Assembly (NCBI GenBank): GCA_965223155.1 | Contig: CBDCVR010000015.1 | Span: forward strand, 640,001-704,000 | Direction: 5' to 3' | Source of the DNA: Candidatus Multivoradales bacterium | Lineage (GTDB): Bacteria; Acidobacteriota; Thermoanaerobaculia; Multivoradales; JAHEKO01 | DNA length: 64,000 nt | Shown here: in pieces, positions 4,435 to 56,804 of the stretch | Position numbering within the stretch: the stretch's first letter is position 1 | How the letters are laid out: the number at the start of each line of letters is the position of its first letter | Program-made: the position numbers and the translations under genes | Notes under the pieces: generated by a model | What the model was told of the DNA's origin: nothing | Databases searched by the model: none | Seen by the model: the letters and a program-made list of their open reading frames with translations, nothing else

Positions 4435-7235
<2,801 letters not shown>

Positions 7236-7481: not shown

Positions 7482-7643
7482 TCTTGCTTGCACAGGACCC
7501 TGTGCAAACCGGGACCGGCGGAAATTTTTCTGTGTTGATCGCTACTTACCGAGACCCTTCGGAACCGGACGAAAGGCGCAAGGCGAGCGTAAAGTTCGGC
7601 CCAGACCGGGCCGTCTTGCCCTCAAAGTAAGGCTTTCTGTAAT

Positions 7644-10438: not shown

Positions 10439-10460
10439 CTCGGAAAACCGACGGATCGAG

Positions 10461-11507: not shown

Positions 11508-11577
11508 CGGAAGTTGAGACCTTTCGGGAGTTGGGACGTTCCGCCGCTTCCCAAGGGGGTGCCACGGGCGGGCGGAG

Positions 11578-11607
11578 ATTCTGGACAGGATCAGTCCTAT
11601 TTGTCAA
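11578..11607 (-). promoter_or_regulatory. Sigma70-like promoter with overlapping GGAC-N7-GTCC inverted repeat
   Basis: Minus strand reads TTGACA-18 nt-CAGAAT; TAGGAC-tgatcct-GTCCAG lies in the spacer. Confidence 0.55.
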
Positions 11608-11692
11608 CGACGGCCGGCAACCGCACCACCGTCCAGGCTGCCTCCTGGGCCATCGCGCGGCGGTCGGATCCGCCCAGGCGTCAACCGGGTGC

Positions 11693-12084
11693 TCAGTCCG
11701 AGGACTCGTCCGATGACGAAGGATGCAGCCAGCGGTGAACCCGCAGCCGGAAGCGTTCCAGCATGTCCATGCCCTTCGGCCAGCGCACGAACACTCGCCG
11801 CAGCAGCCGGTAGACGGTCTCGCTGGCGACCGACAGCACCGCCGCGCCGGCCAGAATCGTCAGCACGCCCTGGATGCCGGGCAGGGCCAAGCCGGCGACG
11901 CCGACCAAGAGCAGGCTCCAGCCCACTACGAACGTCAAGATTCGAGTGCCTAGCGACAGACGCGGCAGCGCCGGCGTGGCGGACTCACGGTCGCCGGCTT
12001 CCGGCGGTTCACCGGCGTCGGCGTTGCCCGGGGCCGGTCGGGCGCCTTGACGCCCCTCATCTTCGCCGCCCTCGCGGCCGGCGG

Positions 12085-12088
<4 letters not shown>
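11693..12088 (-). CDS. Small membrane protein (PGPGW-like family)
   Basis: GWSLLLVGVAGLALPGIQGVLTILAGAAVLS hairpin; overlaps the gltA stop. Confidence 0.65.
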
Positions 12089-13356
<1,268 letters not shown>

Positions 13357-23927: not shown

Positions 23928-25019
23928 TCACTCTCGACCCCCTCCGGAGTCAAAGAGCGGTAGCTGGTCACCCACCGGCCGGCGAAAGCTGGCGGCAGAC
24001 AGCTCGGGTCGTTCCTCCGGGAAGCCCGCCCGTCGGGCCGCGGTCCGAAAGAGCTGGCGCAGCTGCTCCGCCACCGGTCCCTGGCCGCGCCCCCGCCGCC
24101 CGAAGCGGCTCTCGTTGAGAGCACCCCCGCGCACATCCCGAATGCGAGAGAGAACGTGTTCCCGGCGCTCAGGAGCATGCTCCTCGAGCCACTCCGGAAA
24201 GAGCCGTGCGATCACCCCCGGCATGCGCAGCAGAATCCAGGAGGCGTGGCTTGCTCCGGAGTCGCGGGCCGCCTCTAGGATCGAAGGAATCTCGTGGTCC
24301 GTGAGAGCCGGAATCACGGGCGCAATGAGCACCCCCGCCGGAATCCCGGCTTGGGCCAGTTGCGAGATCGCCTTCAGGCGCTTGGCCGGGGCGCTTGCCC
24401 GCGGTTCGAGCCGGCGGGCGAGCTCGGAGTCCAGAGTCGGAATCGAAACCAGGACGGCGGCGGCCCGGTGCCGGGCAAGCTCCGCTAACGGCTCGACGTC
24501 CCGGGTCACGAGAAAGTTCTTGGTGACCACCGCGACCGGATTCCGGAAGCCCGCCAGAACCTCGAGGCAACCGCGGGTCAACTCGAGCTTCCGCTCGATC
24601 GGCTGGTACGGGTCGGTAACGCCCGAAAGACCCAGCGGCTGCGGCTTCCAAACGGGACGCGCCAGCTCCTCGGCCAGGAGCTCGGGAGCTCGATGCTTGA
24701 CCAGAATCCGGGTCTCGAAATCGAGGCCCGCCGACATCCCCAGATACTCGTGAGTCGGCCGCGCGTAGCAGTACGCACAGCCGTGCTCGCAGCCGCGATA
24801 GGGATTGACCGAAGCGTTGAATCCGACGTCGGGACTCTGGTTGCGGGCGATGACGCCTCTTGCGTCGTCGCGGAAGAAGCGCGTCGGGACGGTTGACGGC
24901 TGCCGCGCCTCGGACTCGGATTCATATTCGACGTCAAGACGCTCGAAGCGCGGCTTGGGGTTGCCGAGGCCCCCCCGACCTCGCACCTCGCTGCGTACCC
25001 GCCGTGGCCGGAATGCCAT
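23928..25019 (-). CDS. Radical SAM protein, PA0069/spore-photoproduct-lyase-like family
   Basis: NPYRGCEHGCAYCYARPTHEY and TDPYQPIE. Confidence 0.92.
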   Translation of the reverse strand: MAFRPRRVRSEVRGRGGLGNPKPRFERLDVEYESESEARQPSTVPTRFFRDDARGVIARNQSPDVGFNASVNPYRGCEHGCAYCYARPTHEYLGMSAGLDFETRILVKHRAPELLAEELARPVWKPQPLGLSGVTDPYQPIERKLELTRGCLEVLAGFRNPVAVVTKNFLVTRDVEPLAELARHRAAAVLVSIPTLDSELARRLEPRASAPAKRLKAISQLAQAGIPAGVLIAPVIPALTDHEIPSILEAARDSGASHASWILLRMPGVIARLFPEWLEEHAPERREHVLSRIRDVRGGALNESRFGRRGRGQGPVAEQLRQLFRTAARRAGFPEERPELSAASFRRPVGDQLPLFDSGGGRE

Positions 25020-41374: not shown

Positions 41375-41448
41375 TGGCTGGGACGCAGGGATTCGAACCC
41401 CGATTCCACGGTCCAGAGCCGTGTGTCCTACCATTGAACGACGTCCCA
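41375..41448 (-). tRNA. tRNA-Gln(CTG)
   Basis: TGGGACG acceptor stem, anticodon arm CACGG-CT-CTG-GA-CCGTG, GGTTCGAATCC and encoded CCA. Confidence 0.96.
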
Positions 41449-41460
41449 GCAGCGACGAAA

Positions 41461-41490
41461 ACCCTAACAAGAACCGGTCCAAACGGTCAA
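41461..41490 (-). promoter_or_regulatory. Probable promoter of tRNA-Gln
   Basis: TTGACC-18 nt-TAGGGT with an extended TG, just upstream of the tRNA. Confidence 0.5.
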
Positions 41491-41795
41491 TTGAGGGCTC
41501 GTCGCAAGCCCTCCCACCCACGTTCCGACGGCCGTCGGCCTGTCTCGCGGTCGGACAGGGTTCCTGCCGTCTGCGGCGGCCCGCTCGGAAGACAGGCTCT
41601 CCGGGGATCGGTCCGTCCAAGAACGGCAAGATCCCTCACGACCTCCCACGGAAGCCACGAGGACCGCCACAAGACACTGGCCCTCGATCCGGCAGGGGGC
41701 GACGCTCCGACACGGAATCCCAGTTCCCAGCGTCAAGCCGCTGGACGGCTGGCCCTTGCCGGCCGCCTTCACTAGAATTGAGGCCTTCGACCCGC

Positions 41796-41891
<96 letters not shown>

Positions 41892-41911
41892 TTCCTTCCC
41901 GTTCCCCAGCC

Positions 41912-43489
41912 ATGGTCCGTACCCGCTTCGCTCCCAGCCCGACAGGCTACCTGCACATCGGTGGCGTGCGGACGGCGCTCTTCAACTGGCTCTACTCACG
42001 GCGGCACGGCGGAGCGTTCCTTCTCAGGATCGACGACACCGACCGCCAGCGCAACCTGGAAGCGTCACTTCAGCCGATCCTGGACGGCTTCCGCTGGCTG
42101 GGCATCGACTGGGACGAGGGCCCCGAGGTGGGCGGCGACCTCGGGCCGTACTTCCAGTCCCAACGCGACGACCTCTATCAAGCCGCCGTCGAGCGGTTAC
42201 TCGAGACCGGTGCCGCTTACCGCGACTACGCCACTTCGGACGAGCTCGCCGTCGAGCGCAAGCAGGCCGAGGCCGAGAAGCGCCGATTCCTCTACAGCCG
42301 GCGTTTCCGCGCCGAGACCGACGAGGACCGTGCCCGCTACGAGGCCGAGGGCCGGGCCGCCGTCGTCCGCCTGGCCATGCCGAGGGCCGGCCAGTGCGAG
42401 TTCGAGGACTTGATCCGGGGCCCGATGAGCTTCGACTGGGCGCGCGAGCAGGATCACGTCATCCAGCGCGCGGACGGCTCGGTCCTCTATCACCTGGCCT
42501 CGGTTGTGGATGACCACGCCATGGCCATCAGTCACGTAATCCGCGCCGAGGAGCACCTGTCGAACACGCCGCGCCAGATCTTGATCGCCCGGGCCCTGGG
42601 CTACGAGCTTCCCGCCTACGCCCATCTGCCGTTCGTCGCCGAGCCGGGCTCGAAGAACAAGCTGTCGAAACGCAAGCTCGCCAAGTACTTGAAGCACCAC
42701 GACTTCGCCCGGCTCACCGAGCACGGTCAGACCATCGCCGAAGCCATCGGTCTTCACCCCGAAGCCGAGACCTTCAATCCCGTGATCGTCGATTTCTATA
42801 AGACTGTGGGCTTCGTCCCCGAGGCGCTCCTCAACTACCTTCTGCTCCTCGGCTGGTCGCTCGATGACAAGACCGAGCACTTCACCCGCGAAGAGATGAT
42901 CGCAAGCTTCTCGCTCGAGCGCGTCCAGAAGTCGCCGGCGGCCTTCGACCCGGAAAAGCTCATGAGCTTCGAGGAGCGCCACATGATGGCTCTCTCGGTC
43001 GAGAAACGAGCCGAGCGCTGCCGGCCTTTCCTGGAGGCGGCCGGCTTGCTCGCGCCCGAGACCGGCGGCGAGACGCTTCGAGCCATCGTCCAAGCCGCCG
43101 GCGACCGGATCAAGGTCGCCGGCGACGTCCTGCAATTCGACGACTTCTTCCGGCCGGACGAAGCCCTTTCCTACGACGAGAAGGCCTGGACGAAACGGCT
43201 GGTCCGGCCCGAGGCCGCGGGCGAGCTTCTGGCCGCCTACCGGGAGCGACTCACCGGACGGCCGGACTTTTCGGCCGGGGCGCTCGAGGCCGATATGCGG
43301 GCCTTTGTCGATGAGCGTGGCGTGAAGATCGGTGACATTATCCATGCCGTGCGCATAGCAACGACCGGAAAGGCCGTGGGCTTCGGAATGTTCGAGACTC
43401 TCGAGATCCTGGGCCGCGAGCGGGTCCTCGCCCGGATCGACCGAGCCCTCGCCAAGCTCGAGCTCGAAGCCTCCGAGGCCGCGTCATGA
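41912..43489 (+). CDS. gltX: Glutamate--tRNA ligase
   Basis: [27 protein letters not shown]. Confidence 0.97.
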
Positions 43490-45222
43490 GCGGTCCGGAG
43501 CGTCCAGAGCGCCCGGAGCGTCGTGAGAGCCGGGGCAAGGCGGAGTCCACTCGCGGCAGCCACTTCATCAAGGCGATGATCGAGGCCGACCTCGCCTTGG
43601 GCAAGCACGACTCGATCCGCACCCGCTTCCCACCGGAGCCCAACGGCTACCTCCACATCGGCCACGCCAAGTCGATGTGCCTCAACTTCGGCCTGGCCCG
43701 GGAGTTCGGCGGCACCTGCAACCTGCGCTTCGACGACTCGAATCCCCTTACCGAGCGCCAGGAGTACGTGGACGCCATCCGGCGGGACATCGAGTGGATG
43801 GGCTTTTCCTGGGACGAGGAGCGCTTCGCGTCCGACTACTTCGAACAGCTCTACGCCTGGGCGGTCGAGCTCATCCAGAAGGGCCTCGCCTACGTGGACG
43901 ATCTCTCCGCCGAGGAAATTCGCGCCCACCGGGGCACGCTCACCGAGCCGGGCACGAACAGTCCGTATCGCGACCGCGCGGTCGAGGAAAACCTGGATCT
44001 TTTCGAGCGTATGAAAGCCGGCGAGTTCGAAGACGGAGCCAAAGTGCTCCGCGCCAAGATCGACATGGCGGCCGGCAACCTCAACCTGCGCGACCCGGTC
44101 CTCTACCGGATCCTCAAAGCCGAGCACTACCGGCGCGGCTCCGACTGGTCGATCTATCCGACCTACGACTTCACCCACGGCCAGTCCGACTCGCTCGAAG
44201 GCATCACCCACTCGCTCTGCACCCTGGAGTTCGAGGATCACCGGCCGCTCTACGACTGGTTCATCGACTCGCTCGGCATCTACCCGTCCGAACAGACCGA
44301 GTTCGCCCGGCTCAACCTCTCCTACACCGTGCTCTCCAAGCGCAAGCTCAAGCGCCTGGTCGAGGAGGGGCACGTCGAGGGCTGGGACGATCCGCGCATG
44401 CCGACGCTCTCCGGCCTACGGCGGCGCGGCATCCCACCGGCGGCGATCCGGGACTTCTGCGACCGCATCGGAGTGGCCAAGGCCGACAGCCTGATCGACG
44501 TGGCGCTCCTCGAGCACTGCGTGCGCGAGCATTTGAACAAGTCCGCCCCTCGGCGCATGGCGGTGCTCGATCCGCTCAAGGTGGTGCTCGAGAACTATCC
44601 CGAAGATCGGGTCGAAGAGCTCGACGCGGTCAACAATCCGGAAGACGAATCCGCCGGTAGGCGCAAGGTGCCCTTTTCGCGCGAGCTCTGGATCGAGCGC
44701 GCCGATTTCCTGGAAGACCCGCCCAAGAAGTTCTTCCGGCTGGCTCCCGGACGCGAGGTACGCTTGCGCTGGGGCTACTTCATCAAGTGCGTGGACGTCG
44801 TCAAGGACGACGCCGGCGAGGTCGTCGAGCTTCGCTGCACCTACGATCCGGAGACCCGCGGCGGCCACGCCCCGGACGGCCGCAAGGTACGGGGCACCAT
44901 CCACTGGGTCTCGGCCGCCCACGCCGTCGAGATCGAGGCCCATCTGATCGACCGCCTGTTCACACGGGAGAACCCCGACGAAACCGACACAGGCGGCGCC
45001 TTTCTGGACAACCTCAATCCGGATTCGACCTCGATCCGGAGCCCAGCCTACGCCGAGCCGGCCGTGGCCGAAGCCGAGCCAGGAACTCCCATCCAGTTCG
45101 AGCGTCTCGGCTACTTTGCCCGGGACGCCAAGACGACCGGAGCCGAGGAGCGGCCCGTCTTCCTGCGCACCACGACGCTGCGCGACACCTGGGCCAAGCT
45201 CCAGAAGCGACGCTCGGGCTGA
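43486..45222 (+). CDS. glnS: Glutamine--tRNA ligase
   Basis: [50 protein letters not shown]. Confidence 0.97.
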
Positions 45223-45232: not shown

Positions 45233-46123
45233 CTACTCGCCTCGGGCTTTTTCGAGCTCGGCCAAGTACGGCTTCAACGCGCGATTGGCGGTGTGGCCGA
45301 TGTGGAGAACCGCTCGCTCGCCGACCTCCAGATACCGGACCGTCAGCCCGTCGGCCAGAGCCAGCGCCATCGCCAGCTGCATCGTGTCGTAGTCGTAGAG
45401 GGCGGTCTGGGCGGCCGCCTTCCGGCCGCGCCCCAGGCCCAACCGCCCGAGCGGGCCGGCCAGCCGGCCGGGCGCCGAGCGATAGACGTCGAGCCCGATC
45501 CGGTGCCGATCCAGAATCCTGAGCAATGCCGCCGTCCGGACGACGAGGAAGTGCGTTCGCGGCAGGCGCAGAACCGACCCGTCCTGCTCATCGACCGCGA
45601 CCTCGCGCACGAATCCGGGGTCGTCCGGCACCGCCAGGAAATCCTCCTCGCGCCACGCCACCGGTCCGAAGAGCTTCGGATCGAAGACATAGCAATCGTG
45701 ATCCAGCATCGTGAAGTCGCGACCGATCGAGCGCACCACCGCTTCGAGCACCGCCCCGTGGCGCAGAAACGTGCCCGGAAGGGTCGGCAGCCGAAGGCCT
45801 CGCGCTTCCGGAAACTCGCGACCGATCGTCTCGATCCCGGCGTCCGCCACTCCGTTGTACAGCAAGAGGATTGGCACCTCTCGGGGCACGAGCTTGAGAC
45901 AGAGCCGGAGCCAGCGCATGGTCTCGGGCACGACCACGAGCACCGCCGGCCGCTCCTCACTGGCCACCCCGGCGAAAAACTCCCGCAGCCTGGGCAGCGC
46001 CCGCGCCAGCCGCCGCCGATTCACCGGCTCGGCCAGCCACCGGTATCCACGAACGCCCAGGCCCGGCAGATGAGCATGCCGCCTGAGACGGCGGAGCAGG
46101 CGATTCTCGGATCGGCTCGTCAC
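45233..46123 (-). CDS. Hypothetical protein, possible GT-A-fold glycosyltransferase
   Basis: DxD-like FTMLDHDCYV after LLLYNG and a late LHIGH; otherwise unrecognised. Confidence 0.5.
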   Translation of the reverse strand: MTSRSENRLLRRLRRHAHLPGLGVRGYRWLAEPVNRRRLARALPRLREFFAGVASEERPAVLVVVPETMRWLRLCLKLVPREVPILLLYNGVADAGIETIGREFPEARGLRLPTLPGTFLRHGAVLEAVVRSIGRDFTMLDHDCYVFDPKLFGPVAWREEDFLAVPDDPGFVREVAVDEQDGSVLRLPRTHFLVVRTAALLRILDRHRIGLDVYRSAPGRLAGPLGRLGLGRGRKAAAQTALYDYDTMQLAMALALADGLTVRYLEVGERAVLHIGHTANRALKPYLAELEKARGE

Positions 46124-46186
46124 GGGCCGAATCTATCGGGAGCGGAAAGGCATTGAGGGCAACTTAGCGACATCTCTTGCTCCCAG

Positions 46187-46216
46187 TTGACAACGGACGA
46201 TTGACAGAGCTATAAG
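46187..46216 (+). promoter_or_regulatory. Sigma70-like promoter for the island plus-strand operon
   Basis: TTGACA-18 nt-TATAAG. Confidence 0.55.
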
Positions 46217-46309
46217 ACAACCAGTGGTTGAGTGATTGAGTGGCCTGTTCAAAGTGGGCAGGCTTGTGTTTACGGGTTCGTGAACCTGTTGGCAACACGG
46301 GGAACGGAA

Positions 46310-47383
46310 ATGGATCGCAAGAAGTGGTTCCTAGAAGTAGGAAAGCATTTTGGATACCTCGTACTGGGATTCGTGGTTCCAGTAGCAGTAGTCGTCTGGC
46401 CCTATTGGTCAACTCTCAGATGGAGGCCAACCTTCTTGCCGCTCGCCTTGTTCCTTTTCTTCACGTTCCTGTTGTTGCTCTTTCTTTCGAATCAACTAGG
46501 CCAAGAAGAAGTCGAAAGGGGGCCAGAGCTCCAATCGTTCGTGGATTTCGTGCTCTGGAGTGGCAAGCGGGCCGTTCTGGCGGCGGCCATCATAGGGGCT
46601 CTCGTTCTCTTCTTGTACTTTTCGGTGCCATATGACCCCAGTAAGAACTCGGTCACATACAGGCTTGGAGAGGCGCTTGGACTCTATGTTGGGATCGTCG
46701 GAGTTCTTATCGGGCTTCAGTTCCTGTACTGGCAGGACCACGCCATTACCGACTATCAGCAACTCCTGGCGGCGATGACAAACGATCTGAAGCTCGCCCA
46801 TCGGAACAGGGAGCCGCTGTCCCTTGTCTTCATGGCACCAAACATCGGCTACTTTCGAGCCCTTGACGACCACCTTCGACAGGACCCAAACGGAGATTCC
46901 TCGATGGCCCCACAAACAAAGTCGGTTGGGAACACTGCAGGTGGACTCTACGAGGAATTTCGCCAGCAGGCAGTCGTCTCCGCACCGAGGGGAAGCACGA
47001 TCGTTTGTCACGAGCGCAAGCACTTCGCCAGCTTGTACCGGGCCTACTGCATCCAAGCGAAGATGTCCGACGCGGACACGAGAACCTTCGCGGATAAATG
47101 CGCGAAGGAAGCGACGTCGCTCCTGAGCAGCTTTGAGGGGCTCGGAGGGGTCGTCAAGGAACTCAACCCAGGCGATTTTCCGCGAGAAATAGTGGTAATC
47201 GGTCCTGTTTGCTACCTCTTGTTTCCGCACGGCCTGCCAGTTTGGAAGCAAAGTGAGTCCACGTACGAGCCCAGCACGGATCCACCGATCGGAGGGCTCG
47301 CGAGTCTGATCGCCTATCGCCGCGAGGATCGAATCCTTGCCCGCATAACCCAGAAACGAATTGAAGAACTTGGAGGCACCTGA
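46310..47383 (+). CDS. Hypothetical membrane protein (4 TM plus soluble alpha/beta domain)
   Basis: Long ORF with four hydrophobic helices then about 210 aa of soluble region; no family recognised. Confidence 0.7.
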   Translation: MDRKKWFLEVGKHFGYLVLGFVVPVAVVVWPYWSTLRWRPTFLPLALFLFFTFLLLLFLSNQLGQEEVERGPELQSFVDFVLWSGKRAVLAAAIIGALVLFLYFSVPYDPSKNSVTYRLGEALGLYVGIVGVLIGLQFLYWQDHAITDYQQLLAAMTNDLKLAHRNREPLSLVFMAPNIGYFRALDDHLRQDPNGDSSMAPQTKSVGNTAGGLYEEFRQQAVVSAPRGSTIVCHERKHFASLYRAYCIQAKMSDADTRTFADKCAKEATSLLSSFEGLGGVVKELNPGDFPREIVVIGPVCYLLFPHGLPVWKQSESTYEPSTDPPIGGLASLIAYRREDRILARITQKRIEELGGT

Positions 47384-47385
47384 AT

Positions 47386-48387
47386 ATGAAGAAGTTCCTC
47401 GTCACCCTCGCGATTCTCGGGCTGCTAGGACTCGCCGCCACATTGTGGAAACGTAGCGAGCCGCCTCCGAAGGACCTTGATGCGCCCGATGAGGTCAACG
47501 TGGCCATCGTCTCCATCGTCGAGATCCCACCGATCGTGGACTTGCGGGAGGGCTTTCGCGAACGCCTGGCCGACCCGATAGTCGAGGCGCGATACCGGTT
47601 TACGTTCGAGGAATTTCATGCCCAGGGAGACTCTACGCTCGTTGCGCAAGTTGCCGACGAGGTTAGTTTGTCCAGGCCAGACGCTGCTTATGTCCTCGGC
47701 ACACCTCTCGCAGCGGCCATCCAGAACAAATCCCCCGACCTTCTGGTTGTCCAGGGAGCAGTCACCGACCCCGTTTCTGCTGGATTGGCTGACTCTTGGC
47801 TTGGTTCGGGGCGCCAGTATGTAGCTACCTCCGACCTTCCTCCCATCGTGCGAATCCTGGAAACACTCAACCGCCTGATCCAAGGCCAGCCGATTGGAGT
47901 CATCTACAACCCGAGCGAAGGCAACTCGGTCGCCGTCATCGAGAGGGTCCGGACGGAAACCAAACGGCGGGGGATCTCGCTAGTCGAGCAGCCGGTCGCA
48001 AGTGGAGGGGATGTCGCCACCGCAACTCAGCGTTTGGTCGGCTCGGTAGGGGCCCTTTTCGTCCCTCCAGACAATACGGTGCACGCCAACCTGGCATCCC
48101 TGGGCGCGATTGCCGACCAAGCCAAGCTCCCTTGGTTTGCAACCACAGGCTCGGCGCTCCAAGAGGGTGCGTTCGGTGCCGTGGAGACGAGCTTTCGGGA
48201 ACTTGGCTGGGAGGCTGCCAACCTCCTGCTAGCTGTCCTGGCCAAGAACGACGCATCGACCATGCCCATTCGCCATCTGGAGGATGCCGACATCGTCCTC
48301 GAAGCGGACCGTCTAGAGTTCTTCGGCCTTGACGCCCGCCGCCTCGGTGACGTGTCGGATGTCCGTCTCATCAACGCTTCCGACTGA
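47386..48387 (+). CDS. ABC substrate-binding protein (ABC_sub_bind, aromatic amino-acid/TrpX-like)
   Basis: AQGD, AVTDPVSAGL, TSD, IGVIYNPSEGNS, PPDNTV. Confidence 0.85.
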   Translation: MKKFLVTLAILGLLGLAATLWKRSEPPPKDLDAPDEVNVAIVSIVEIPPIVDLREGFRERLADPIVEARYRFTFEEFHAQGDSTLVAQVADEVSLSRPDAAYVLGTPLAAAIQNKSPDLLVVQGAVTDPVSAGLADSWLGSGRQYVATSDLPPIVRILETLNRLIQGQPIGVIYNPSEGNSVAVIERVRTETKRRGISLVEQPVASGGDVATATQRLVGSVGALFVPPDNTVHANLASLGAIADQAKLPWFATTGSALQEGAFGAVETSFRELGWEAANLLLAVLAKNDASTMPIRHLEDADIVLEADRLEFFGLDARRLGDVSDVRLINASD

Positions 48388-48390
48388 CCT

Positions 48391-49275
48391 GTGTGGGAAG
48401 TAAAGGTCGGGATAGTTGCCGCGGAGGGGTTGATCTTTTCAATGGTAGCGCTTGGAGTCTTCGTCTCATTCCATTGGACCCGATTCCCGGATCTGACACC
48501 GGACGGGACCTTTATTCTTGGCGCTGCGGTAGCTGGAGCCTTTAGCGAGGCCGTCCCGTCGCCCCTCCTGATTCTCTTCATCGCCGCGGTAGGCGGTGCA
48601 ACATTCGGCGCCATTACTGCAATTCTCAACCGCTTGCTCCGTATTCCGGCCGTGGTCGCCGGAATGCTCGTAGCTTCCGCGTTGTACTCGATTTCTTGGT
48701 TGCTAATGGGGGCACCCACCCGCCTTGTGCCGAGAGCACGCACAATCGCCGGCAGCCTGGACCTTGAACCTGCGCTCTGGGCGTTGGTCGCATTTCTCTC
48801 TGTCCTTGTGGCAGCCACGGTTGCCGGCCTAGCTCTCTGCGGAGACTCCTCAGACGGACTCAAAATACGGAGCGTCCGGGAGAATCCCCGACTAGAGGTC
48901 GAAGTCGGTCTGTCGGACAACAAGGCAACCCTGGTAGGACTGGGCGTCGGGAATGGCTTGGTGGCGCTGGCCGGCGCGCTACTGACACAGCGTAGCTTCA
49001 CGGCAGATATCCAAATGGGTGTTGGAATCACCATCGTGGGCCTTGCAGGGCTCATGCTCGGAGGAATGCTAGTTCGAGACAACTCGAGAACATACGTACT
49101 CCTGCTCGCAATCGTACTCGGGAGTCTGCTCTACAAAGCCTTGGTCTTCTTGGCATTGGAACTCGGACTTCCAGCCGAGTCGTTTCGCCTCATGACAGCG
49201 GTAATTCTCGGCGGTGGGTACTTGCTTGTCCACCGCGAGTCGATGGATTTCCTCCGCAGCTTGAGGTGGTCTTGA
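48391..49275 (+). CDS. ABC transporter permease (BPD_transp_2-like)
   Basis: FPDLTPDGTFILGAA and ADIQMGVGITIVGLA. Confidence 0.88.
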   Translation: MWEVKVGIVAAEGLIFSMVALGVFVSFHWTRFPDLTPDGTFILGAAVAGAFSEAVPSPLLILFIAAVGGATFGAITAILNRLLRIPAVVAGMLVASALYSISWLLMGAPTRLVPRARTIAGSLDLEPALWALVAFLSVLVAATVAGLALCGDSSDGLKIRSVRENPRLEVEVGLSDNKATLVGLGVGNGLVALAGALLTQRSFTADIQMGVGITIVGLAGLMLGGMLVRDNSRTYVLLLAIVLGSLLYKALVFLALELGLPAESFRLMTAVILGGGYLLVHRESMDFLRSLRWS

Positions 49276-49955
49276 AACTCCAGCGGGTACAGCGCACCTT
49301 CCCGGCCTTCGAGCTGGACATTCCCGATCTCTACATCGGTGCTGGCAACATGACCTTCCTCATCGGGGGCAATGGCAGCGGCAAGAGCGTTTGGCTTCAA
49401 GCGCTCTTGGAGGAGAGTCGAGCGCCAGGATCCGAGGCTTGGCCGGTCGTCGGGCTTGTTCGCCAGCATGCCGATCACAATCTGGCACCTTCGCTGACAC
49501 TGGAACAAAATCTCATAACAAGACTCGCCTCTCGCGGCTTTGGTGCCCGACTCTGGCCGGCTCGGTTCCTCCGAGGCGAGGTCGGGAAACTGCTGGAGCC
49601 GCATCCAACGCTTCGTCACCAAGCCACGGTTCGCGTCGACAGGCTTTCGATGGGGCAGCGACAGCTCTTGGCCTACCTGACATCGTCACAGCGGGACGTT
49701 GAGCTGCTCTTGCTGGATGAATTCTTGGCAGCTGCCGACGTCATCGTTCGGAAGCAACTCCTAGCCTCGGTCCGAAGGTTCCTTGCTCAATGCGACCGAG
49801 CCGCCATCATTGTGTCGCACGACCTTCGACTGGTGATCGACGAAGCTAGTCGGGTGCTTGTCTTCAGCGGAGGGCGCTTGGTGGCAGATGTACACTGCGA
49901 CACCTCCCCTTTCTCAGAAAAAGAGATGCTTCGATTGATGCGCGTCAGCGAATGA
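49266..49955 (+). CDS. ABC transporter ATP-binding protein
   Basis: GGNGSGKS, LSMGQRQ, LLLLDE, VSHD. Confidence 0.85.
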   Translation: MVLKLQRVQRTFPAFELDIPDLYIGAGNMTFLIGGNGSGKSVWLQALLEESRAPGSEAWPVVGLVRQHADHNLAPSLTLEQNLITRLASRGFGARLWPARFLRGEVGKLLEPHPTLRHQATVRVDRLSMGQRQLLAYLTSSQRDVELLLLDEFLAAADVIVRKQLLASVRRFLAQCDRAAIIVSHDLRLVIDEASRVLVFSGGRLVADVHCDTSPFSEKEMLRLMRVSE

Positions 49956-50908
49956 GGGGATCGCACTGGCTCGGGCTGTTCTTTGTGGCGACCGTGGTCG
50001 CATCGATCGCCTACTTTCTGTCCCCTCGGAGCGGAGCTCTAGCCGGCTCCGTGGTAAGCGCGTCACTTGAGGAACAACCGCTGAGAGGAGAAGTCGTGGC
50101 CGCGCTTCGCCTCATCGAGGGTGATCACGGAGAAATTACGGCAAACCGAATCGCAGAGCTCAGAACTATCGCGAGCCAGGGCCTGTGGCGGCAGGGGTGT
50201 TCCTCTGACTTCGAGGTGGCTCTTACCACTGTCATCAAGTACTTCGACCTCCCATTTCCGAAGCCGTGGGGCCCTGAGAGCATCGAAGTGCTCTGTGACC
50301 CCGTTCGCGTTATTTACCCCGACGCCAACGACGGTCTCGATCAAACTGTGGTCCAGCTCGAAGACTCGAGCCTATTCAAATCTAACGACGTCGCCGAGCT
50401 CATCGATACTTGTGCGCGCTTCGAGGCTGGCTCAATAAGAAGTACCGTCTCGATCCAGGACCGAGCCTTCACGTTGTACAACGTCGCTTCGCCTGAGAGG
50501 GCCAATCAGCGGAAGAAGGTTGCTACCGACCTGCGCCTGATTCGAGATCGATACTGCCAGCGGGGTGCCAACAGGCACGTCCTAATAGTCGCGGCTCGAA
50601 TTCACAACCCTGGCCCCTTGCCCAACGCAATTCGTGGGCACGCAGTTGTCGAACTTCGACCTCGGACCGCGAAATCAGGCGTTGTGGTTCCTCTAACGTT
50701 GACAGGAGACGGAACGATCCCGGCCGGGCAGAGCACCACTAGTATTTTCCTCTCAGCTACTATCGACTCGCCCGAAACCAGCAGTCAGCCCAGCGTCAGC
50801 GATCTCTACCGGCACGGAGCCGACGCAACTCTCGGTCTCACAGACATCTATGAACGGGAAATCAAACTTCCGTTTGAATTCTCGACGACGGCCGATCGCC
50901 GGGATTAG
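49952..50908 (+). CDS. Hypothetical exported or membrane-anchored protein
   Basis: N-terminal hydrophobic helix, four Cys and a beta-rich C-terminus; ATGA-coupled to the ATPase. Confidence 0.65.
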   Translation: MRGSHWLGLFFVATVVASIAYFLSPRSGALAGSVVSASLEEQPLRGEVVAALRLIEGDHGEITANRIAELRTIASQGLWRQGCSSDFEVALTTVIKYFDLPFPKPWGPESIEVLCDPVRVIYPDANDGLDQTVVQLEDSSLFKSNDVAELIDTCARFEAGSIRSTVSIQDRAFTLYNVASPERANQRKKVATDLRLIRDRYCQRGANRHVLIVAARIHNPGPLPNAIRGHAVVELRPRTAKSGVVVPLTLTGDGTIPAGQSTTSIFLSATIDSPETSSQPSVSDLYRHGADATLGLTDIYEREIKLPFEFSTTADRRD

Positions 50909-51630
50909 TCCTTTCGCCACACGTAGGACCTGTAGGAATGCGAACCATTCTTCAGCAAAGGCGCCAAGCCATTTGTCATGTAGTCGTTGAGTTCGTTGAG
51001 AATCTCACATCCTGGAGAGCGCGGTCCTGCAATCACCTCGAACTGCCTCCTGCGGAGGCTGTTTCCCTCGACTAACGCTCTCCAGACGCCACTAGAGAGA
51101 TCCACGTTCCTAACCTCGGTGAGACCACACGCTGCCGCGAAGGCTTCTAGGTCATCGAAGAACTCCTTCGGCCCTCCGTCAGCAATGACCAGCAAACCCT
51201 TCTTCTTGAGAGTTCTGGCCGAGCCCGCGACGAATCCTGAAACCGATTCGATCGAGTGCATTGCTTCAAGACAGAAGACGACATCGATCGAAGCGTGCTG
51301 AATCGGCAAAGCGCCTCCATCAGAAACCACTGCGAAGATGCTGGATCTCCTGGACCCGGCCTCGAACGCATGGCTAGGAAGCCGGTCCAGACAGATAACG
51401 GAAGCCACGCGCAGGTTCTCAAGGAGAATTCGCGCCGGCCCTCCGTGACCGGAACCAACATCTAGCAAGCGCCTCCCGGCCAGAGGCATAGAGCCGGCTA
51501 CCTCTAGGACGAGTTCCCGTTGATCCGCGGGATACCCCCGGGCTGCCGACCGAGCGTAGCCATGATTCAAGAAGGGCAGCTTTCCGGGCGGTATCAAACG
51601 AGCCGCCTGCTCGAACCAAGCTCGGGACAC
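50905..51630 (-). CDS. Class I SAM-dependent methyltransferase
   Basis: FLNHGY, LLDVGSGHGG, IDVVFCLEAMH, LKKKGLLVIAD. Confidence 0.88.
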   Translation of the reverse strand: MSRAWFEQAARLIPPGKLPFLNHGYARSAARGYPADQRELVLEVAGSMPLAGRRLLDVGSGHGGPARILLENLRVASVICLDRLPSHAFEAGSRRSSIFAVVSDGGALPIQHASIDVVFCLEAMHSIESVSGFVAGSARTLKKKGLLVIADGGPKEFFDDLEAFAAACGLTEVRNVDLSSGVWRALVEGNSLRRRQFEVIAGPRSPGCEILNELNDYMTNGLAPLLKNGSHSYRSYVWRKD

Positions 51631-51670
51631 AAGAGCCTCTTACTATCTCAGTGCCGCCTGTTGCACAGAA

Positions 51671-52534
51671 TCAACAATATTGGGAACGAACACTTGCTAG
51701 CTCGTCAAGAAGAACTTCACCAAGGTCTGTACATCTGGCATGTCGCTCCAAACCGCTCAAGCCCTCTGCAAACTTCGCTCGATAATCGTCCACAACTGCT
51801 GATCCCACTCGAACGCTTGGCGGCCACCGAGAATGCAGCATCAGCAGCCTTGCTAGGACGAAAACCGCGTGGAGTACTGCATCCAACGGTCTTGGTTCCG
51901 TTCGAAAAGGAGAAGGGCCGTACTCCTCGGGATTCTGCAGCGGCTGAAAGAAATAGTTCCGAAGAAGAAGCTCGAGATGGGTCGCCTCATGAACTAGAAG
52001 GTCGAGGAGCAAGATCTGAGAATTGAATGCACTTTCTTCAAGAAAGACAGCGCCGAAAGCGCTAGTACTAGTGGCTGAGCGAAGCCGGTGAGCACGGATC
52101 GAGACTACGACAGGAGCCAGCCGAATCAGGATTGCTTGTTGCTGCGGCCAGATCCTTTCCAGGAACACAAGGGAGTTCGACAGTTGCAACTGTCGCATCT
52201 CGCTTTCCGAGGAAAGACACACATCTTCTGCGAAGGCCAAACCACTCGAGAATTCTGAAAGAGCGGCTGCCACCCAGCCTCTAGAGCCAGCCGCTTCGGA
52301 AGTAAGCAATCCAGGAGATGGCCGGACAGCGTCGCGACTCAGGTCGTAGTTCGTGCCGACCGGACCCACAGCTGCCCAATAAAGATCCGGAGAGCGGTCC
52401 TCTATCTTGAAACCGTGATTTCCGAATCTCGCGCGGAGTCGCAACTCGACAGCTTGCCAAAAAAAATCAAGCAACGGAACAAGTCCGTCGAGATCCGGCT
52501 CTACCTCAACGAGTGACCGGACCGGTACTTGCAC
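51671..52534 (-). CDS. HExxH-motif protein (aKG-HExxH peptide beta-hydroxylase-like)
   Basis: SATS..AFGAVF, LLVHEATHLEL and SPFRTEPRPLDAVLHAVFV. Confidence 0.85.
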   Translation of the reverse strand: MQVPVRSLVEVEPDLDGLVPLLDFFWQAVELRLRARFGNHGFKIEDRSPDLYWAAVGPVGTNYDLSRDAVRPSPGLLTSEAAGSRGWVAAALSEFSSGLAFAEDVCLSSESEMRQLQLSNSLVFLERIWPQQQAILIRLAPVVVSIRAHRLRSATSTSAFGAVFLEESAFNSQILLLDLLVHEATHLELLLRNYFFQPLQNPEEYGPSPFRTEPRPLDAVLHAVFVLARLLMLHSRWPPSVRVGSAVVDDYRAKFAEGLSGLERHARCTDLGEVLLDELASVRSQYC

Positions 52535-52539
52535 GCGAC

Positions 52540-52713
52540 TCAGGTCGGTTGACGTGCTGGACGTACTGCCCTCGATCTCATCCTGCCCTCAGTGCTGGAC
52601 TTTTCGCCCTTCGGAGGTGCGAAGCAATAGGATCGTGAGTGTGCGTCAAGCCTTCGAGCAAGCTCTTCCAAATCCACCTCCAGATGAGATGGAAGCTCAG
52701 CTTTTGTTGTCAT
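52540..52713 (-). CDS. Putative RiPP precursor peptide (57 aa)
   Basis: GAGGAG RBS before ATG, acidic leader-like LEVDLEELARRL, first gene of the HExxH-methyltransferase unit. Confidence 0.55.
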   Translation of the reverse strand: MTTKAELPSHLEVDLEELARRLDAHSRSYCFAPPKGEKSSTEGRMRSRAVRPARQPT

Positions 52714-52735
52714 CTCGGGCTCCTCGTTGTTCACA

Positions 52736-52744
52736 ATTGTACCA
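52736..52744 (-). promoter_or_regulatory. Extended -10 element (TGGTACAAT) upstream of the putative precursor
   Basis: TGnTACAAT about 22 nt upstream of the ATG at 52713. Confidence 0.5.
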
Positions 52745-52960
52745 AAGAAGGGACTTTTCGCTAGGGTTCCTTCCCCTGAGTACGACGGCACAGGGCGCTC
52801 TGCCTCTATCAATTGTTACCTCGCCCGGGACTTCTCCAAGCAGATACAGTGCCAGGCTTAGAGCTTCAGGGTTCTCGATCTCTCCTCCCGCGGTTGGCAA
52901 TCCTCCACGGTCCGGCTACACTCGCGCGGTCACTGCGCAGGCCGGTTTCGAACCCCGCGG

Positions 52961-54970
52961 ATGTCTTCCTGGAAGCCAACAGACGTCGACCACGTAGCGG
53001 TCCAGACCATCCGGTTTCTGGCGGTGGACATGGTCGAGCGCGCCAACTCGGGGCATCCGGGCGCGCCGATGGGGCTGGCCCCTCTGGGCTACACGCTCTT
53101 CGCTCGCCACCTGCGCCACCATCCCGAAAACCCCGACTGGGCCAACCGGGACCGGTTCGTCCTGTCCTGCGGACATGCCTCGGCGCTCCTCTACGCCCTG
53201 CTGCATCTCGCCGGCTACGATCTGCCGCTCGACGAGCTCCGGAACTTCCGCCAGCTCGGCTCGAAAACACCCGGCCATCCCGAGCACGGGCTGACGCCGG
53301 GAGTCGAGACCACCACCGGTCCGCTCGGCCAGGGCATCTCGACGGCTGTGGGCATGGCGATCGCCCGCGACAAGCTGGCCGCCACCTTCAACCGCGACGG
53401 CCAGGAGCTTTTTGATTTCCGCACTTGGGTGATCGCGAGCGACGGCGACTTGATGGAAGGCATTGCCTCGGAGGCGTGCTCGTTCGCGGGACATCTCCGG
53501 CTGGGCTCGCTCAAGGTCTTCTACGACGACAACCAGATCTCGATTGACGGCTCGACCGACTTGACCTTCTCCGAAGACGTCGGCAAACGCTACAAGAGCT
53601 ACGGCTGGAACGTGCTGCGGGTCGAGGACGGCAACGATCTCGAAGCCCTCGATCGGGCGGCCACCCGCGCGGCCGAGCACGAGGACCGGCCGACCCTGGT
53701 CATGGTTCGTACCCACATCGGTTTCGGCAGCCCCAACAAGCAGGACTCCTCGGCGGCCCACGGCTCGCCCCTGGGGACCGGCGAGGTCGAGCTCACCAAG
53801 CGCAACCTGGGGTGGCCGGCCGAGCCGACCTTCCACATCCCGGAAGAGGCGCGGGAAGCCTTCGCGCCGGTCGTCGCGCGTGGCAAGCGCCTCGAGGCCG
53901 AGTGGAGCTCGCTGCGCCGGACGCACGGCGAGCGCCACCCTGATCTCGCCGCCGAGCTGGATCGGCGCCTGGCCGGCAACCTTCCCGAGGACTGGCGCCA
54001 GCATCTGCCGTCGTTCGCTCCGGAGGACGGCCCGGTCGCCACCCGCAAGGCCTCCGGAACGGTCTTGAACGCCCTGGCTCCCGCCTTCCCCGAGTTCGTG
54101 TCGGGCTCTGCCGATCTGACCGGCTCGAACAACACCTATCTGGCCGACGACGGCGACTACTCGGCAAGCGATCCGGTAGCGCGGAACCTCCGCTACGGCG
54201 TCCGCGAGCACGCCATGGGCGCGATCGTCAACGGCCTGGCTCTGACCAAGGCCTTTCTTCCGTACGCCGGTACGTTCCTGGTCTTCTCCGACTACATGCG
54301 GGCGGCGGTGCGCCTGGCGGCCTTGATGGAGCAGCGCTCGATCTTCGTCTTCACCCACGATTCGATCTTCCTGGGCGAGGACGGACCCACGCATCAGCCC
54401 GAAGGCCATCTGGCGTCCCTGCGCGCGATCCCGAACCTGACGGTGCTACGGCCGGCCGACGCCAACGAGGTCGCCGCCGCCTGGGCGGTCGCGATCGAAT
54501 CACCCGACACCCCTTCGGCGATCGTCTTGACCCGGCAGAAGCTGCCCATCCTGGCCGAGACCGCGACGCTCGCCGCTGAGGGCGTCCGCCAGGGCGCCTA
54601 CGTCCTGGCCGGGGCCGACGAAGACGCCGAGGGACTCTTGCTCGCCACCGGCTCGGAGGTCGCCCTGGCACTCGAAGCGCGCGCCCGTCTGGCCGAGGAA
54701 GACATCGCCGTCCGCGTCGTCAGCATGCCGTCCTGGGAGCTCTTTGCCGCCCAGCCCCGGGACGTTCGGGACGGGGTGCTGCCGCCCGAGCTCACCGCCC
54801 GGCTCTCGGTCGAGGCCGGCTCGACCCTGGGCTGGCACCGGTGGGTGGGGAGCGCCGGCGACGTTCTCGGCATCGATCGCTTCGGAGCGTCGGCGCCGGG
54901 GAGCGATCTCGCTGAGCCCTTCGGCCTGACCGCCGAAGCCGTGGCCGGGCGTTTCCGAAAACTGCTCTAG
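52961..54970 (+). CDS. tkt: Transketolase
   Basis: ANSGHPGAPMG, RDRFVLSCGH, GDLMEG, YGVREHAM, GEDGPTHQP. Confidence 0.98.
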   Translation: MSSWKPTDVDHVAVQTIRFLAVDMVERANSGHPGAPMGLAPLGYTLFARHLRHHPENPDWANRDRFVLSCGHASALLYALLHLAGYDLPLDELRNFRQLGSKTPGHPEHGLTPGVETTTGPLGQGISTAVGMAIARDKLAATFNRDGQELFDFRTWVIASDGDLMEGIASEACSFAGHLRLGSLKVFYDDNQISIDGSTDLTFSEDVGKRYKSYGWNVLRVEDGNDLEALDRAATRAAEHEDRPTLVMVRTHIGFGSPNKQDSSAAHGSPLGTGEVELTKRNLGWPAEPTFHIPEEAREAFAPVVARGKRLEAEWSSLRRTHGERHPDLAAELDRRLAGNLPEDWRQHLPSFAPEDGPVATRKASGTVLNALAPAFPEFVSGSADLTGSNNTYLADDGDYSASDPVARNLRYGVREHAMGAIVNGLALTKAFLPYAGTFLVFSDYMRAAVRLAALMEQRSIFVFTHDSIFLGEDGPTHQPEGHLASLRAIPNLTVLRPADANEVAAAWAVAIESPDTPSAIVLTRQKLPILAETATLAAEGVRQGAYVLAGADEDAEGLLLATGSEVALALEARARLAEEDIAVRVVSMPSWELFAAQPRDVRDGVLPPELTARLSVEAGSTLGWHRWVGSAGDVLGIDRFGASAPGSDLAEPFGLTAEAVAGRFRKLL

Positions 54971-55055: not shown

Positions 55056-56804
55056 CTAGTTGACGTAGCCGTGGGCCTGGAGCTGGCGGCGGCGGGTCTC
55101 GGCCTCGTCCGGGGTCTCGGCGTCGTCAGAGGTCTCGACAGCGGCCTGTGCTCGCTCCAGCTCTCGCCGGCGTCGCCGCTCTCCCGCCGAGGTGACCGCC
55201 GGATTGTGCCAGTACCCGAAAAATGCCGGCGCCCGCCCGTCCGGGCCCTCTTCCTCGACCGCCACGCAAAGCTCCACCCAGCGATGAGCGAATGCGGCGA
55301 GATCCACCGTCGCGCGGCCCTTGGTCTCGAGCGCGGCGCCACCTTCCGGCTCCGGCTCCAGGCCCAGGACGTCCTCGAACACGGCACCGGCGGTCTCGTC
55401 GCCCTCTTGGACCGTGGCCTGGAAGACGGCGCGGTAGGCGGCGATGCCGCGCTTCGTGAGCCCGCGCCGGTTGACGCCGTAGCCGAGCGCGAGCTGGGCG
55501 CCCTCCGGAACCAGCAATCGCCGGCAGGCTTTCTTGTCCTTCAGAACCTGCATCTCGACCCCGTCGATGCGGACGTCGATGAGTCCGTACGATTCCATGA
55601 ACCCGTAGATGCGGCGGTCGGTGTACCGGTATCCCGGGGAGGGCTCGACAGCCCGCTCGCTTGGAGCTCGCAAGGCCGCGAGCTGCGGGGCGTAGTCGTA
55701 CGGGTAGCGGCTGGGCCGGACCGGATCGAAGAGCGGCTCCCATTGCCAGACGGTGTCGCCATGCCGATCGATCTCGAAGAGCCGCCCGCTCCGGCTGGAG
55801 GCAATCACGGTGTTGCCTCCCGGTAGGCGCTGGCCCACGCCCGCCGTCGGGCTGAAGAACTCCTCAGCGTCGTAGCGCCAGACGATCTCCTCGGTCACCG
55901 GATCGATCTCCAGGATCGCGCTCTGCCGATACCGGACGCGGTTGTTCAAGCCGTTGTCGAAGATCTGGACGGTCCCAGCCCCCGGCTCGCCGAGGGGAAT
56001 CATGCGGGCTTCGTGCTGCCGGTCGAGATCCCGATCGAAGAACCAGACCACCTCCTTCGTCGCCTTGTCCACGACGAAGACCGCGTTGCGATTGCGCGCC
56101 GAGACCAGGACATTGCCGGGACGGAAGCGTTCGTCGCCGGCCGCAAACCACGGATTCTCCGGCAAGGACTGGACTGAGTTCATGTGGGTGAGCTCGCCGC
56201 CCTCCGGAAGCGGATCCGGGAAGTAGGCCGCCAAGCCTTCGAGCGCGCGCCATTCCCAGACGACCTCGCCCGCGGGATCGACCTCCACCAAATCGTCGGC
56301 GCGCTCGCCATCGCGCAGGACGATCGTCAGCGTGTTGCCGTTGGCCAGCCGCTCGAGATCGTGATGCGGAAACATTCCGTCGAACGCCCGCTCCCAGACC
56401 AGATTGCCGTCCCAGTCGTACTCGACCAGCGAGCGTCCCCGGGCCAGGCCCAGGAGATTGCCGTTGGCCAGGAGCTTGACCCGGGACTTGACCCGAGCCT
56501 CCGGCCAAGCGTGGACAACCCTGCCGTTCATGTCGAACAGAACGGGCACCCGCGACCAGAAGAGCGCCAGGTTGTAGCCGCTCGCGGACCGTTCCGGGTT
56601 GTAAATCGAGATCCAGGACGGCGGGTCGTGGACGGCAAGAAACTCGTAGCCCTTCGGATGCCGGCTCCAAAGGCCGGTGCCTTTGTCTTCGTCCGGACCG
56701 CCGCAATCGGAGACCACCAGCGTCAAAATGACGGCCACAAGCACCCTGAGCGAAGCGGCCGTTCGGCGACCCGTGTGGGCACCGGCGTGTTCAGTCCGAC
56801 CCAT
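55056..56804 (-). CDS. Arylsulfotransferase (ASST)-like beta-propeller protein with C-terminal extension
   Basis: HHD, THMNSV, RQHEAR, IFDNG, QRLPGGNTVI; ends LQAHGYVN. Confidence 0.82.
   Translation of the reverse strand: MGRTEHAGAHTGRRTAASLRVLVAVILTLVVSDCGGPDEDKGTGLWSRHPKGYEFLAVHDPPSWISIYNPERSASGYNLALFWSRVPVLFDMNGRVVHAWPEARVKSRVKLLANGNLLGLARGRSLVEYDWDGNLVWERAFDGMFPHHDLERLANGNTLTIVLRDGERADDLVEVDPAGEVVWEWRALEGLAAYFPDPLPEGGELTHMNSVQSLPENPWFAAGDERFRPGNVLVSARNRNAVFVVDKATKEVVWFFDRDLDRQHEARMIPLGEPGAGTVQIFDNGLNNRVRYRQSAILEIDPVTEEIVWRYDAEEFFSPTAGVGQRLPGGNTVIASSRSGRLFEIDRHGDTVWQWEPLFDPVRPSRYPYDYAPQLAALRAPSERAVEPSPGYRYTDRRIYGFMESYGLIDVRIDGVEMQVLKDKKACRRLLVPEGAQLALGYGVNRRGLTKRGIAAYRAVFQATVQEGDETAGAVFEDVLGLEPEPEGGAALETKGRATVDLAAFAHRWVELCVAVEEEGPDGRAPAFFGYWHNPAVTSAGERRRRRELERAQAAVETSDDAETPDEAETRRRQLQAHGYVN

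Follow-up and report, generated by a model that had tools for sequence, protein, structure and literature searches.

A candidate peptide-modifying operon with a stand-alone HExxH protein in a low-GC island of a Multivoradales genome

We analyzed a three-gene unit on the minus strand of a 64-kb window from a Candidatus Multivoradales bacterium (phylum Acidobacteriota). The window is the whole stretch of 64,000 nt at positions 640,001 to 704,000 of contig CBDCVR010000015.1; all positions given below are those of the window unless another contig is named, and both strands were considered where stated. In the order of transcription, the unit holds a 57-aa open reading frame (ORF), a gene for a 287-aa protein with an HExxH motif and a gene for a class I methyltransferase. 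We consider that this genome-specific operon probably encodes a small peptide together with an iron oxygenase and a methyltransferase that modify it, and a minimal peptide natural-product cluster is a plausible description of the whole. A sequence-only reading of the window had proposed such a system for a peptide of the RiPP type, that is, one made on the ribosome and modified after translation; the low-GC island, the three-gene unit, the protein motifs, the extended -10 element and the GAGGAG ribosome-binding site that it listed are all present. The features of the unit are as follows:

52736-52744, minus strand: promoter-like element of the extended -10 type (TGGTACAAT), located 22 nt upstream of the ATG with which the small ORF starts
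52720-52725, minus strand: Shine-Dalgarno sequence GAGGAG, 6 nt ahead of the same ATG
52540-52713, minus strand: 57-aa ORF (MTTKAELPSH...RQPT), candidate precursor peptide, with ATG at 52713-52711 and TGA at 52542-52540
51671-52534, minus strand: predicted stand-alone alpha-ketoglutarate (aKG)-HExxH-type peptide oxygenase of 287 aa (TIGR04267), start GTG at 52534, stop at 51671
50905-51630, minus strand: class I S-adenosylmethionine (SAM)-dependent methyltransferase of 241 aa (Methyltransf_11)

Gene signals and protein families

The element TGGTACAAT is the sole match to TGNTAYAAT on both strands of the window, where 0.10 matches are expected and at least one occurs in 10 of 100 shuffles. A two-hexamer promoter scan did not report this site, as there is no -35 match beside it, which fits an extended -10 promoter. 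The arrangement GAGGAG-N6-ATG, seen here at 52711-52725, occurs at four sites in the window against 0.67 expected. Judged from these positions, the promoter-like element and the Shine-Dalgarno sequence appear to serve the 57-aa ORF specifically. The TGA of this ORF lies 5 nt ahead of the GTG of the HExxH gene, in a different frame, and the best candidate for a ribosome-binding site upstream of that GTG is GAG only. As a 5-nt gap between stop and start next to a weak ribosome-binding site is the usual arrangement for translational coupling, translation of the HExxH gene is probably coupled to that of the peptide ORF. The methyltransferase gene has a ribosome-binding site of its own, AAGAGG. The 200-nt leader region gave no Rfam match at E<=1 and its folding stability is ordinary (z +0.5), so that an RNA element is no better explanation of this region.

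For TIGR04267 ("aKG-HExxH-type peptide beta-hydroxylase", IPR026337), which has a cut-off of 40 bits, the 287-aa protein reaches 68.1 bits; residues 124-279 align to model positions 7-177 of 177, and a search of the genome found this single TIGR04267 gene (69.3 bits). A Pfam scan of the protein gave no match, and there is no additional domain. The HExxH motif is HEATH at residues 182-186, followed by SPFRTEPRPLDAVLH at 208-222, which includes R211 and R215 within SPFRTEPRP and ends on the third His, H222. In an alignment of 41 sequences, H182, E183, H186, R215, H222 and G272 are invariant, and in line with the roles reported for the hydroxylase ChlH, H182, E183, H186, R215 and H222 are presumably the iron and co-substrate ligands. 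When the profile of this alignment was compared with the PDB, one sequence was matched, that of ChlH (8s5f, E 4.3e-25), in which HExxH, Arg residues and third His line up with those of the query. The AlphaFold2 (AF2) model of the 287 residues is confident (pLDDT 90.8, pTM 0.90) and presents a complete two-domain structure, for which Foldseek returned 8s5f as the best match (TMq 0.72 over 341 columns, E 2.5e-10), SjiH (22ob) as the next, and all others at E>0.8. By hidden Markov model, motifs and fold, the assignment of this protein to the aKG-HExxH peptide hydroxylase family is solid, and the protein is predicted to be an oxygenase; the family had already been named in the sequence-only reading from the HExxH motif, the downstream Arg motif and the third His, and that naming stands.

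[quoted passage not shown] The protein nonetheless keeps the family motif SP(L/F)RxxxRP...H, with the Arg residues and third His that the oxygenase ChlH also has, and its best structural matches are the HExxH-family structures 8s5f and 22ob, whereas classical zinc peptidases appear in Foldseek at E about 1. We therefore consider a peptidase in place of an oxygenase very unlikely.

At the sequence level, a word-indexed search of 5.8 billion clusters gave six non-self matches, whose identity does not exceed 41% and whose coverage of the query does not exceed 46%. An exhaustive phmmer search of 1.84 billion representatives gave 1040 matches at E<=1e-3 and 114 at E<=1e-10; at E<=1e-30 only the query itself was found, the best other match having an E-value of 2.4e-22. 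These matches are mostly HExxH proteins of 290-350 aa, aligned through the C-terminal 160 residues.

The length of these homologues bears on another explanation, namely that a longer HExxH gene was broken by a frameshift or an assembly error and that the small ORF represents its N-terminal end. The sum of 57 and 287 residues, 344 aa, falls inside the homologue range, and the two ORFs are only 5 nt apart in separate frames. In two alignments with homologues (A1 and A2), however, the 287-aa protein begins level with the other sequences, anchored by P4, P13, P49 and W87, and internal gaps explain why it is shorter. Comparing 155 homologues with positions 51601-53000 by tblastn gave no segment pair upstream of 52534 under E 0.029, and none aligned the N-terminus of a homologue in the frame of the ORF. 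The 287 residues alone yield the confident model noted above, which matches the full HExxH fold of ChlB, the protein that contains the ChlH domain. Moreover, the locus at 50905-52960 is covered without indels by independent contigs from four public runs, so the ORF boundaries are not due to an assembly frameshift; it should be noted that the four runs, all of them DNA runs with no RNA run listed among the public runs, represent two samples of one study, which is possibly the source of the window itself. Among longer proteins of the collection searched, finally, none of 126 candidates matched the peptide at E<=1. The alignment of the small ORF to the N-terminus of longer homologues, which had been named as a point to check, was thus not found; the HExxH gene is whole, and we reject the split-gene explanation as extremely improbable.

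The designation of the third protein as a class I methyltransferase also holds: it matches Methyltransf_11 with 45.5 bits (cut-off 21.2, E 1.2e-11), as well as Methyltransf_25 (32.8 bits, cut-off 27) and Methyltransf_23 (27.2 bits, cut-off 27), and an atlas search returned clusters of class I methyltransferases. In the NCBIfam scan no equivalog model reached its cut-off; the phthiotriol methyltransferase model NF045823 matched residues 40-241 at E 2.3e-18, with 66 bits against an equivalog cut-off of 300. The PDB matches were 3bus (1e-5), which we take to be the sugar O-methyltransferase RebM, and the D-glucose O-methyltransferase 6uv6 (2.4e-4). As the nearest named relatives (phthiotriol methyltransferase, the fatty-acid O-methyltransferase Mtf2, BioC, 3bus and 6uv6) all methylate hydroxyl or carboxyl oxygens, O-methylation would be the best guess for its chemistry. 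In one of the run assemblies (X4), eight positions differ from the window (51213-51489), all of them in the methyltransferase gene, the HExxH gene and the small ORF being free of differences; four are synonymous and four are conservative (M48V, V117I, R139K and T140A), and at a depth of about 3 some of them are possibly errors.

The 57-aa ORF as a candidate precursor

As a candidate precursor, the 57-aa ORF product can be divided into a predicted leader helix at residues 7-23 (LPSHLEVDLEELARRLD), a predicted core at residues 25-34 (HSRSYCFAPP) and a basic tail at residues 35-57. Models of the peptide in complex with the 287-aa protein scored 0.76, 0.78 and 0.79 (ipSAE) in three runs, while the best of three controls scored 0.00; the pLDDT of the partner is at least 57 and the runs agree on at least 63% of the contacts. 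In calibration, 58 of 80 complexes of solved structure attained the score mark, as did 2 of 110 mismatched pairs; these counts are only a rough guide here as a custom alignment was used. The modelled contacts of the peptide are with enzyme residues 24-35 for its residues 7-23, and with 150-158, 179, 182-183, 186, 190, 194-196, 210 and 222 for its residues 25-34; the latter site is made up of an edge strand and the metal site. The 23 residues of the basic tail show no confident contacts. The enzyme is thus predicted by the model to recognize the precursor with the leader on its N-domain and the core at its metal site, and both the binding and the register of the peptide are to be read as modelled. 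The complex prediction, which had been suggested as a check, places the stretch HSRSYCF that had been singled out beforehand at the HExxH/His222 site.

Binding by itself would also suit a 57-aa product that is translated and bound as a partner or regulator, perhaps a subunit for recognition or gating, perhaps an inhibitor; the model gives binding only and no chemistry, and the basic tail is left without confident contacts. The modelled residues 25-34, however, pass through the active-site cleft by H182, H186 and H222 in the manner in which zincin-fold enzymes hold their substrates. In addition, PflC/PosC and PesO, which belong to the same family, take the leader-bearing precursor directly (PMC12636437, PMC13060819). 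We regard a purely regulatory role as unlikely.

A more serious alternative is that the product of the small ORF, if it is made at all, is no substrate, such that positions 52535-52735 form a long 5' leader and the two enzymes act on something else: a peptide that is encoded elsewhere, or a non-ribosomal or imported compound, perhaps one taken up by the neighbouring ATP-binding cassette (ABC) importer. Several observations speak for this or weigh against the peptide as precursor. In a codon model trained on the seven genes of the island, the ORF scored -0.111, below all 173 in-frame windows of 57 codons (minimum -0.029), and 34% of 865 out-of-frame windows scored as high. A score based on synonymous codons only (-0.053) is likewise below every gene window. 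The codon usage of the ORF therefore looks non-coding-like and counts against a typical gene, while it should be considered that short, disordered peptides rich in Arg, Ser and Pro can give such low codon scores. The ORF is not among the entries of the protein collection, that is, no gene was called for it; the collection offered no candidate homologues of 31-100 aa, none of the 126 longer candidates mentioned above (101-2000 aa) matched, and the genome holds no paralogue (best non-self E 0.55). The island also carries an importer-type ABC system and two proteins without a family, and no leader protease or exporter family was recognized with Pfam and NCBIfam among its eight proteins, of which those of 383 and 318 aa are without a family. 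The HExxH protein itself has no close relative, the closest showing about 35% identity across the C-terminal two thirds, and the complex score expresses the confidence of a model and is not a measurement.

Conservation adds to these points. We collected 32 loci around HExxH homologues, 12 of them on public contigs (11 genomic and one metagenomic) and the other 20 in same-phylum genomes, of which one (G209) is flagged as unpublished; the closest homologues, P0008-P0011 (E 1e-20 to 1e-22), are not among the loci. Thirteen of the 32 loci match the HExxH query at E<=1e-4. A homologue of the methyltransferase or of any other island protein was found in none of the 32, so the expectation that a related methyltransferase co-occurs with the HExxH gene was not borne out. 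The same is true of the expected conservation of the peptide beside HExxH homologues: among 4634 frames in 41 loci, the best match had an E-value of 0.03 and was of low complexity. This match (7199-7393 of locus L004) comes from high-GC DNA, in a frame that runs from stop to stop, is rich in Ser, Ala and Arg and lies immediately upstream of an HExxH homologue without the third His; we treated it as a chance match. Precursor and enzyme hence do not co-occur in the related loci. The profile of A1 further matched 30 of 400 other genomes of the phylum, mostly in long frames of 385-1628 aa, all of them more distant than those of loci L003 and L014. In two distant loci, L006 and L013, a radical SAM gene lies beside the HExxH gene, as judged by eye from CxxxCxxC-like N-termini.

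Against the view that the small ORF is a leader region without a substrate stand the gene signals and the structure prediction. An ideally spaced Shine-Dalgarno sequence directly follows the only extended -10 element of the window, and the ORF stops 5 nt before the start of an HExxH gene whose own ribosome-binding site is poor at best. With a score of 0.78, and 0.00 for the best control, the complex model puts the core at the metal site, and the 200-nt leader has neither an RNA family match nor a stable structure to account for such a length. Almost no other intergenic space is found in the island for a precursor, and the genome has only one TIGR04267 gene and no match to MNIO, YcaO or LanC. 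For a translated precursor beside its enzyme, then, the promoter-like element, the Shine-Dalgarno sequence and the stop-start coupling arrangement are in place and the codon usage is non-coding-like; translation of the predicted ORF is a step that we infer. Gene signals and one strong structure prediction suggest the precursor assignment, and codon statistics and the complete lack of conservation oppose it. We consider it quite possible, with a chance clearly short of even, that the enzymes act on another substrate.

The low-GC island and its flanks

The operon lies in an island in which the GC content of 1-kb bins (46001-53000) is 0.56-0.61, compared with 0.66-0.71 in the adjoining bins. Two further features are defined here by composition and by Pfam and NCBIfam hits:

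46130-52900, no strand assigned: low-GC island, comprising the three-gene minus-strand operon and a convergent five-gene plus-strand block
46232-50908, plus strand: five-gene block

The five-gene block encodes a 383-aa multi-pass membrane protein without a family, a binding protein (PF04392/TrpX-like), a permease (BPD_transp_2), an ABC ATPase and a signal-anchored protein of 318 aa, also without a family. The last stop of the block overlaps the stop of the methyltransferase gene by 3 nt, in convergent orientation. As the binding protein belongs to PF04392, the ABC system is of the importer type. An atlas search with the 318-aa protein was uninformative (best score 0.84, recognition 2093).

The island is flanked by two Glu/Gln-tRNA synthetase genes on one side and by transketolase on the other. 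In four genomes of the same genus (G001-G004), the end of the tRNA-synthetase gene and the transketolase gene are about 3.7 kb apart and on opposite strands, while in the window these flanks (44613-45209 and 52961-54500) are 7.7 kb apart and on the same strand, which implies an inversion or a replacement together with the island. The HExxH gene was not found in the 60 relatives searched, up to the level of order, and the island is specific to this genome among the genomes searched.

Within the island, GC at third codon positions is 0.51 for the HExxH gene and 0.47 for the small ORF, as compared with 0.64-0.69 for the methyltransferase gene and all five plus-strand genes. Given this difference, the peptide-HExxH pair (51671-52713) may have an origin different from that of the rest of the island.

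Some neighbouring genes were also recorded. An ORF of 296 aa at 45233-46123 (minus strand) has no Pfam family and no match in the relatives. The stretch at 41375-45222 holds two neighbouring class Ic aminoacyl-tRNA synthetase genes beside tRNA-Gln(CTG) and tRNA-Ser(GCT), one (41756-43489) with an Anticodon_2 domain and the other (43486-45222) with GlnRS-type C-terminal domains. Just downstream of transketolase, at 55056-56804 (minus strand), a 582-aa protein with arylsulfotransferase (ASST) beta-propeller domains is encoded.

Proposed pathway and comparison with known systems

Taking these results together, we favor, with somewhat better than even confidence, a genuine peptide-oxygenase-methyltransferase pathway, that is, a candidate RiPP-like cluster. 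In the mechanism we propose, the operon would be transcribed from the extended -10 promoter and would yield, in order, the 57-aa precursor-like peptide, the HExxH oxygenase and the methyltransferase. The acidic, amphipathic helix of the peptide (residues 7-23) is predicted to dock on the long N-domain helix of the enzyme (24-35), with residues 25-34 extended along edge strand 150-158, and a side chain would thereby be presented to an iron bound by H182, H186 and H222. The enzyme, using Fe(II) and alpha-ketoglutarate, would hydroxylate one or more residues, most likely at C-beta, while an oxidative cleavage as performed by PflC could also occur. The methyltransferase would add a methyl group afterwards, plausibly on the new hydroxyl. 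The residue that is modified, the target of the methyltransferase and any export or leader removal are conjectural.

In its boldest form, this pathway would be a self-sufficient, minimal RiPP pathway in which the HExxH protein is the sole, class-defining maturase and an O-methyltransferase caps the beta-hydroxyl to give a beta-methoxy amino acid; we consider this version doubtful. In the literature searched, we found no description of a beta-methoxy amino acid in RiPPs, no case in which modification is left to an HExxH enzyme paired with a methyltransferase alone, and no cluster in which these two enzymes and a precursor are the only components. All aKG-HExxH enzymes characterized so far operate next to a further maturase, for example a radical SAM or MNIO enzyme. 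If the pathway is genuine, the system would be the simplest natural setting for leader recognition and site selectivity by the HExxH fold and could bring to light a new pair of modifications, in which a hydroxylation is followed by a methylation; at about 1.8 kb, the whole of it is easy to synthesize. As the operon is a singleton without relatives, evolutionary support for this reading is missing, which should be considered as its weakness.

With regard to other maturases, the nearest Radical_SAM match lies at 24270-24809, 26 kb off, outside of the island and in core DNA, and is one of 20 in the genome. In the same genome, which is 98.66% complete, no match was found for MNIO (PF05114), for which the control search did give a match in Caulobacter, nor for YcaO; LanC gave no match either, a weak negative as none of the control genomes gave one. 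The statement in the sequence-only reading that no radical SAM, YcaO or lanthipeptide enzyme is nearby agrees with these results, but an HExxH enzyme that lacks a radical SAM partner is by now not remarkable as such. The family was first characterized as fusions to radical SAM cyclophane synthases (PMC12636437), and stand-alone members without radical SAM partners have since been described, namely BpmH, PflC/PosC and PesO, all of them beside MNIO (PMC12636437, PMC13060819). As such enzymes are already characterized, only the minimal gene set would be new, and the new RiPP type put forward in the sequence-only reading is better described as a candidate cluster of minimal size built on a tailoring enzyme of known kind. 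The substrates of characterized members are ribosomal peptides of the same cluster, in which His, Asp, Phe, Gln or Pro is hydroxylated (PMC13060819, PMC12636437); of these target types, His, Phe and Pro are all found in HSRSYCFAPP. [quoted passage not shown]

ChlH, the HExxH domain of ChlB (8s5f) and the founding aKG-HExxH beta-hydroxylase of a triceptide pathway, resembles the 287-aa protein over the whole length of the fold and shares with it the HExxH motif, the SP(W/L/F)RxxxRP motif and the third His, and the substrate of ChlH is a ribosomal peptide. The two differ in that ChlH is fused to, or acts after, a radical SAM cyclophane synthase and needs a pre-installed cyclophane (PMC12636437). 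Identity in the structural alignment is about 16%, and the radical SAM gene here is distant. In contrast to the radical SAM-associated systems of the triceptide and FxsB type in general, the operon has neither a fused nor an adjacent radical SAM/SPASM protein.

The best genomic relative with context is that of Nocardia alni (locus L003, phmmer 1.4e-16). There, at 6990-12686 of the locus (contig NZ_JAGPOX010000031.1), genes are found for an HExxH protein of 307 aa, an arginase-family protein, a 377-aa protein without assignment, a major facilitator superfamily (MFS) exporter and a class I methyltransferase. As in the window, a radical SAM gene is not adjacent, a methyltransferase is part of the operon and an acidic ORF, which ends in ...ELDYDNLLARTLEEMEAQEVTLPGDIDDMRRGAYGDVWYIAYRTFIDDQPR, lies just upstream of the HExxH gene. 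In contrast, its methyltransferase is not detectably related to that of the window, and the arginase-family protein and the exporter have no counterpart here. BLASTP between the upstream ORF and the 57-aa peptide gave nothing at E<=100. A resemblance of the two leaders ('L-D/E-x-D..LARxLE') was dropped, as the expression had been composed post hoc and BLASTP lent it no support. Locus L003 thus appears to be a cluster of the same style with no homology between the peptides, and, taken by itself, it resembles another candidate RiPP cluster, one with peptide-arginase chemistry.

For the proposed order of modifications, a chemical analogy is offered by the non-ribosomal lipopeptide A54145, in which beta-hydroxylation followed by O-methylation yields 3-methoxy-aspartate. 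A hydroxylase and an O-methyltransferase there together produce a beta-methoxy amino acid, whereas the peptide is not ribosomal and the enzymes are of other families. SmaO (PMC12186529), which was considered as a relative, was rejected as a canonical iron/2-oxoglutarate enzyme that is not an HExxH protein.

Further parallels are found in the clusters that are associated with MNIO (biphenomycin, pfl/pos and pes), from which the present operon differs in that its genome has no MNIO. PflC and PosC of the Pseudomonas pfl and pos clusters are stand-alone, leader-dependent aKG-HExxH enzymes, and these clusters contain no protease (PMC12636437), as is the case here. They do contain an MNIO-nitroreductase, a GNAT protein and transporters, none of which accompanies the peptide here, and their precursor carries an NHLP-type leader followed by a Gln run and then ARMD, unlike the 57-aa peptide; neither pfl nor pos has a methyltransferase. 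BpmH (biphenomycin) and PesO (nitrilobacillin) are likewise stand-alone aKG-HExxH enzymes that tailor RiPP precursors, and PesO hydroxylates Pro, a residue that is also present in HSRSYCFAPP (PMC13060819). Both tailor beside an MNIO, in the case of pes also beside an Asn-synthetase-like enzyme (PMC12257519 and PMC12707348 for BpmH; PMC13060819 for PesO), whereas in the operon described here the HExxH protein would act as the sole oxidative maturase.

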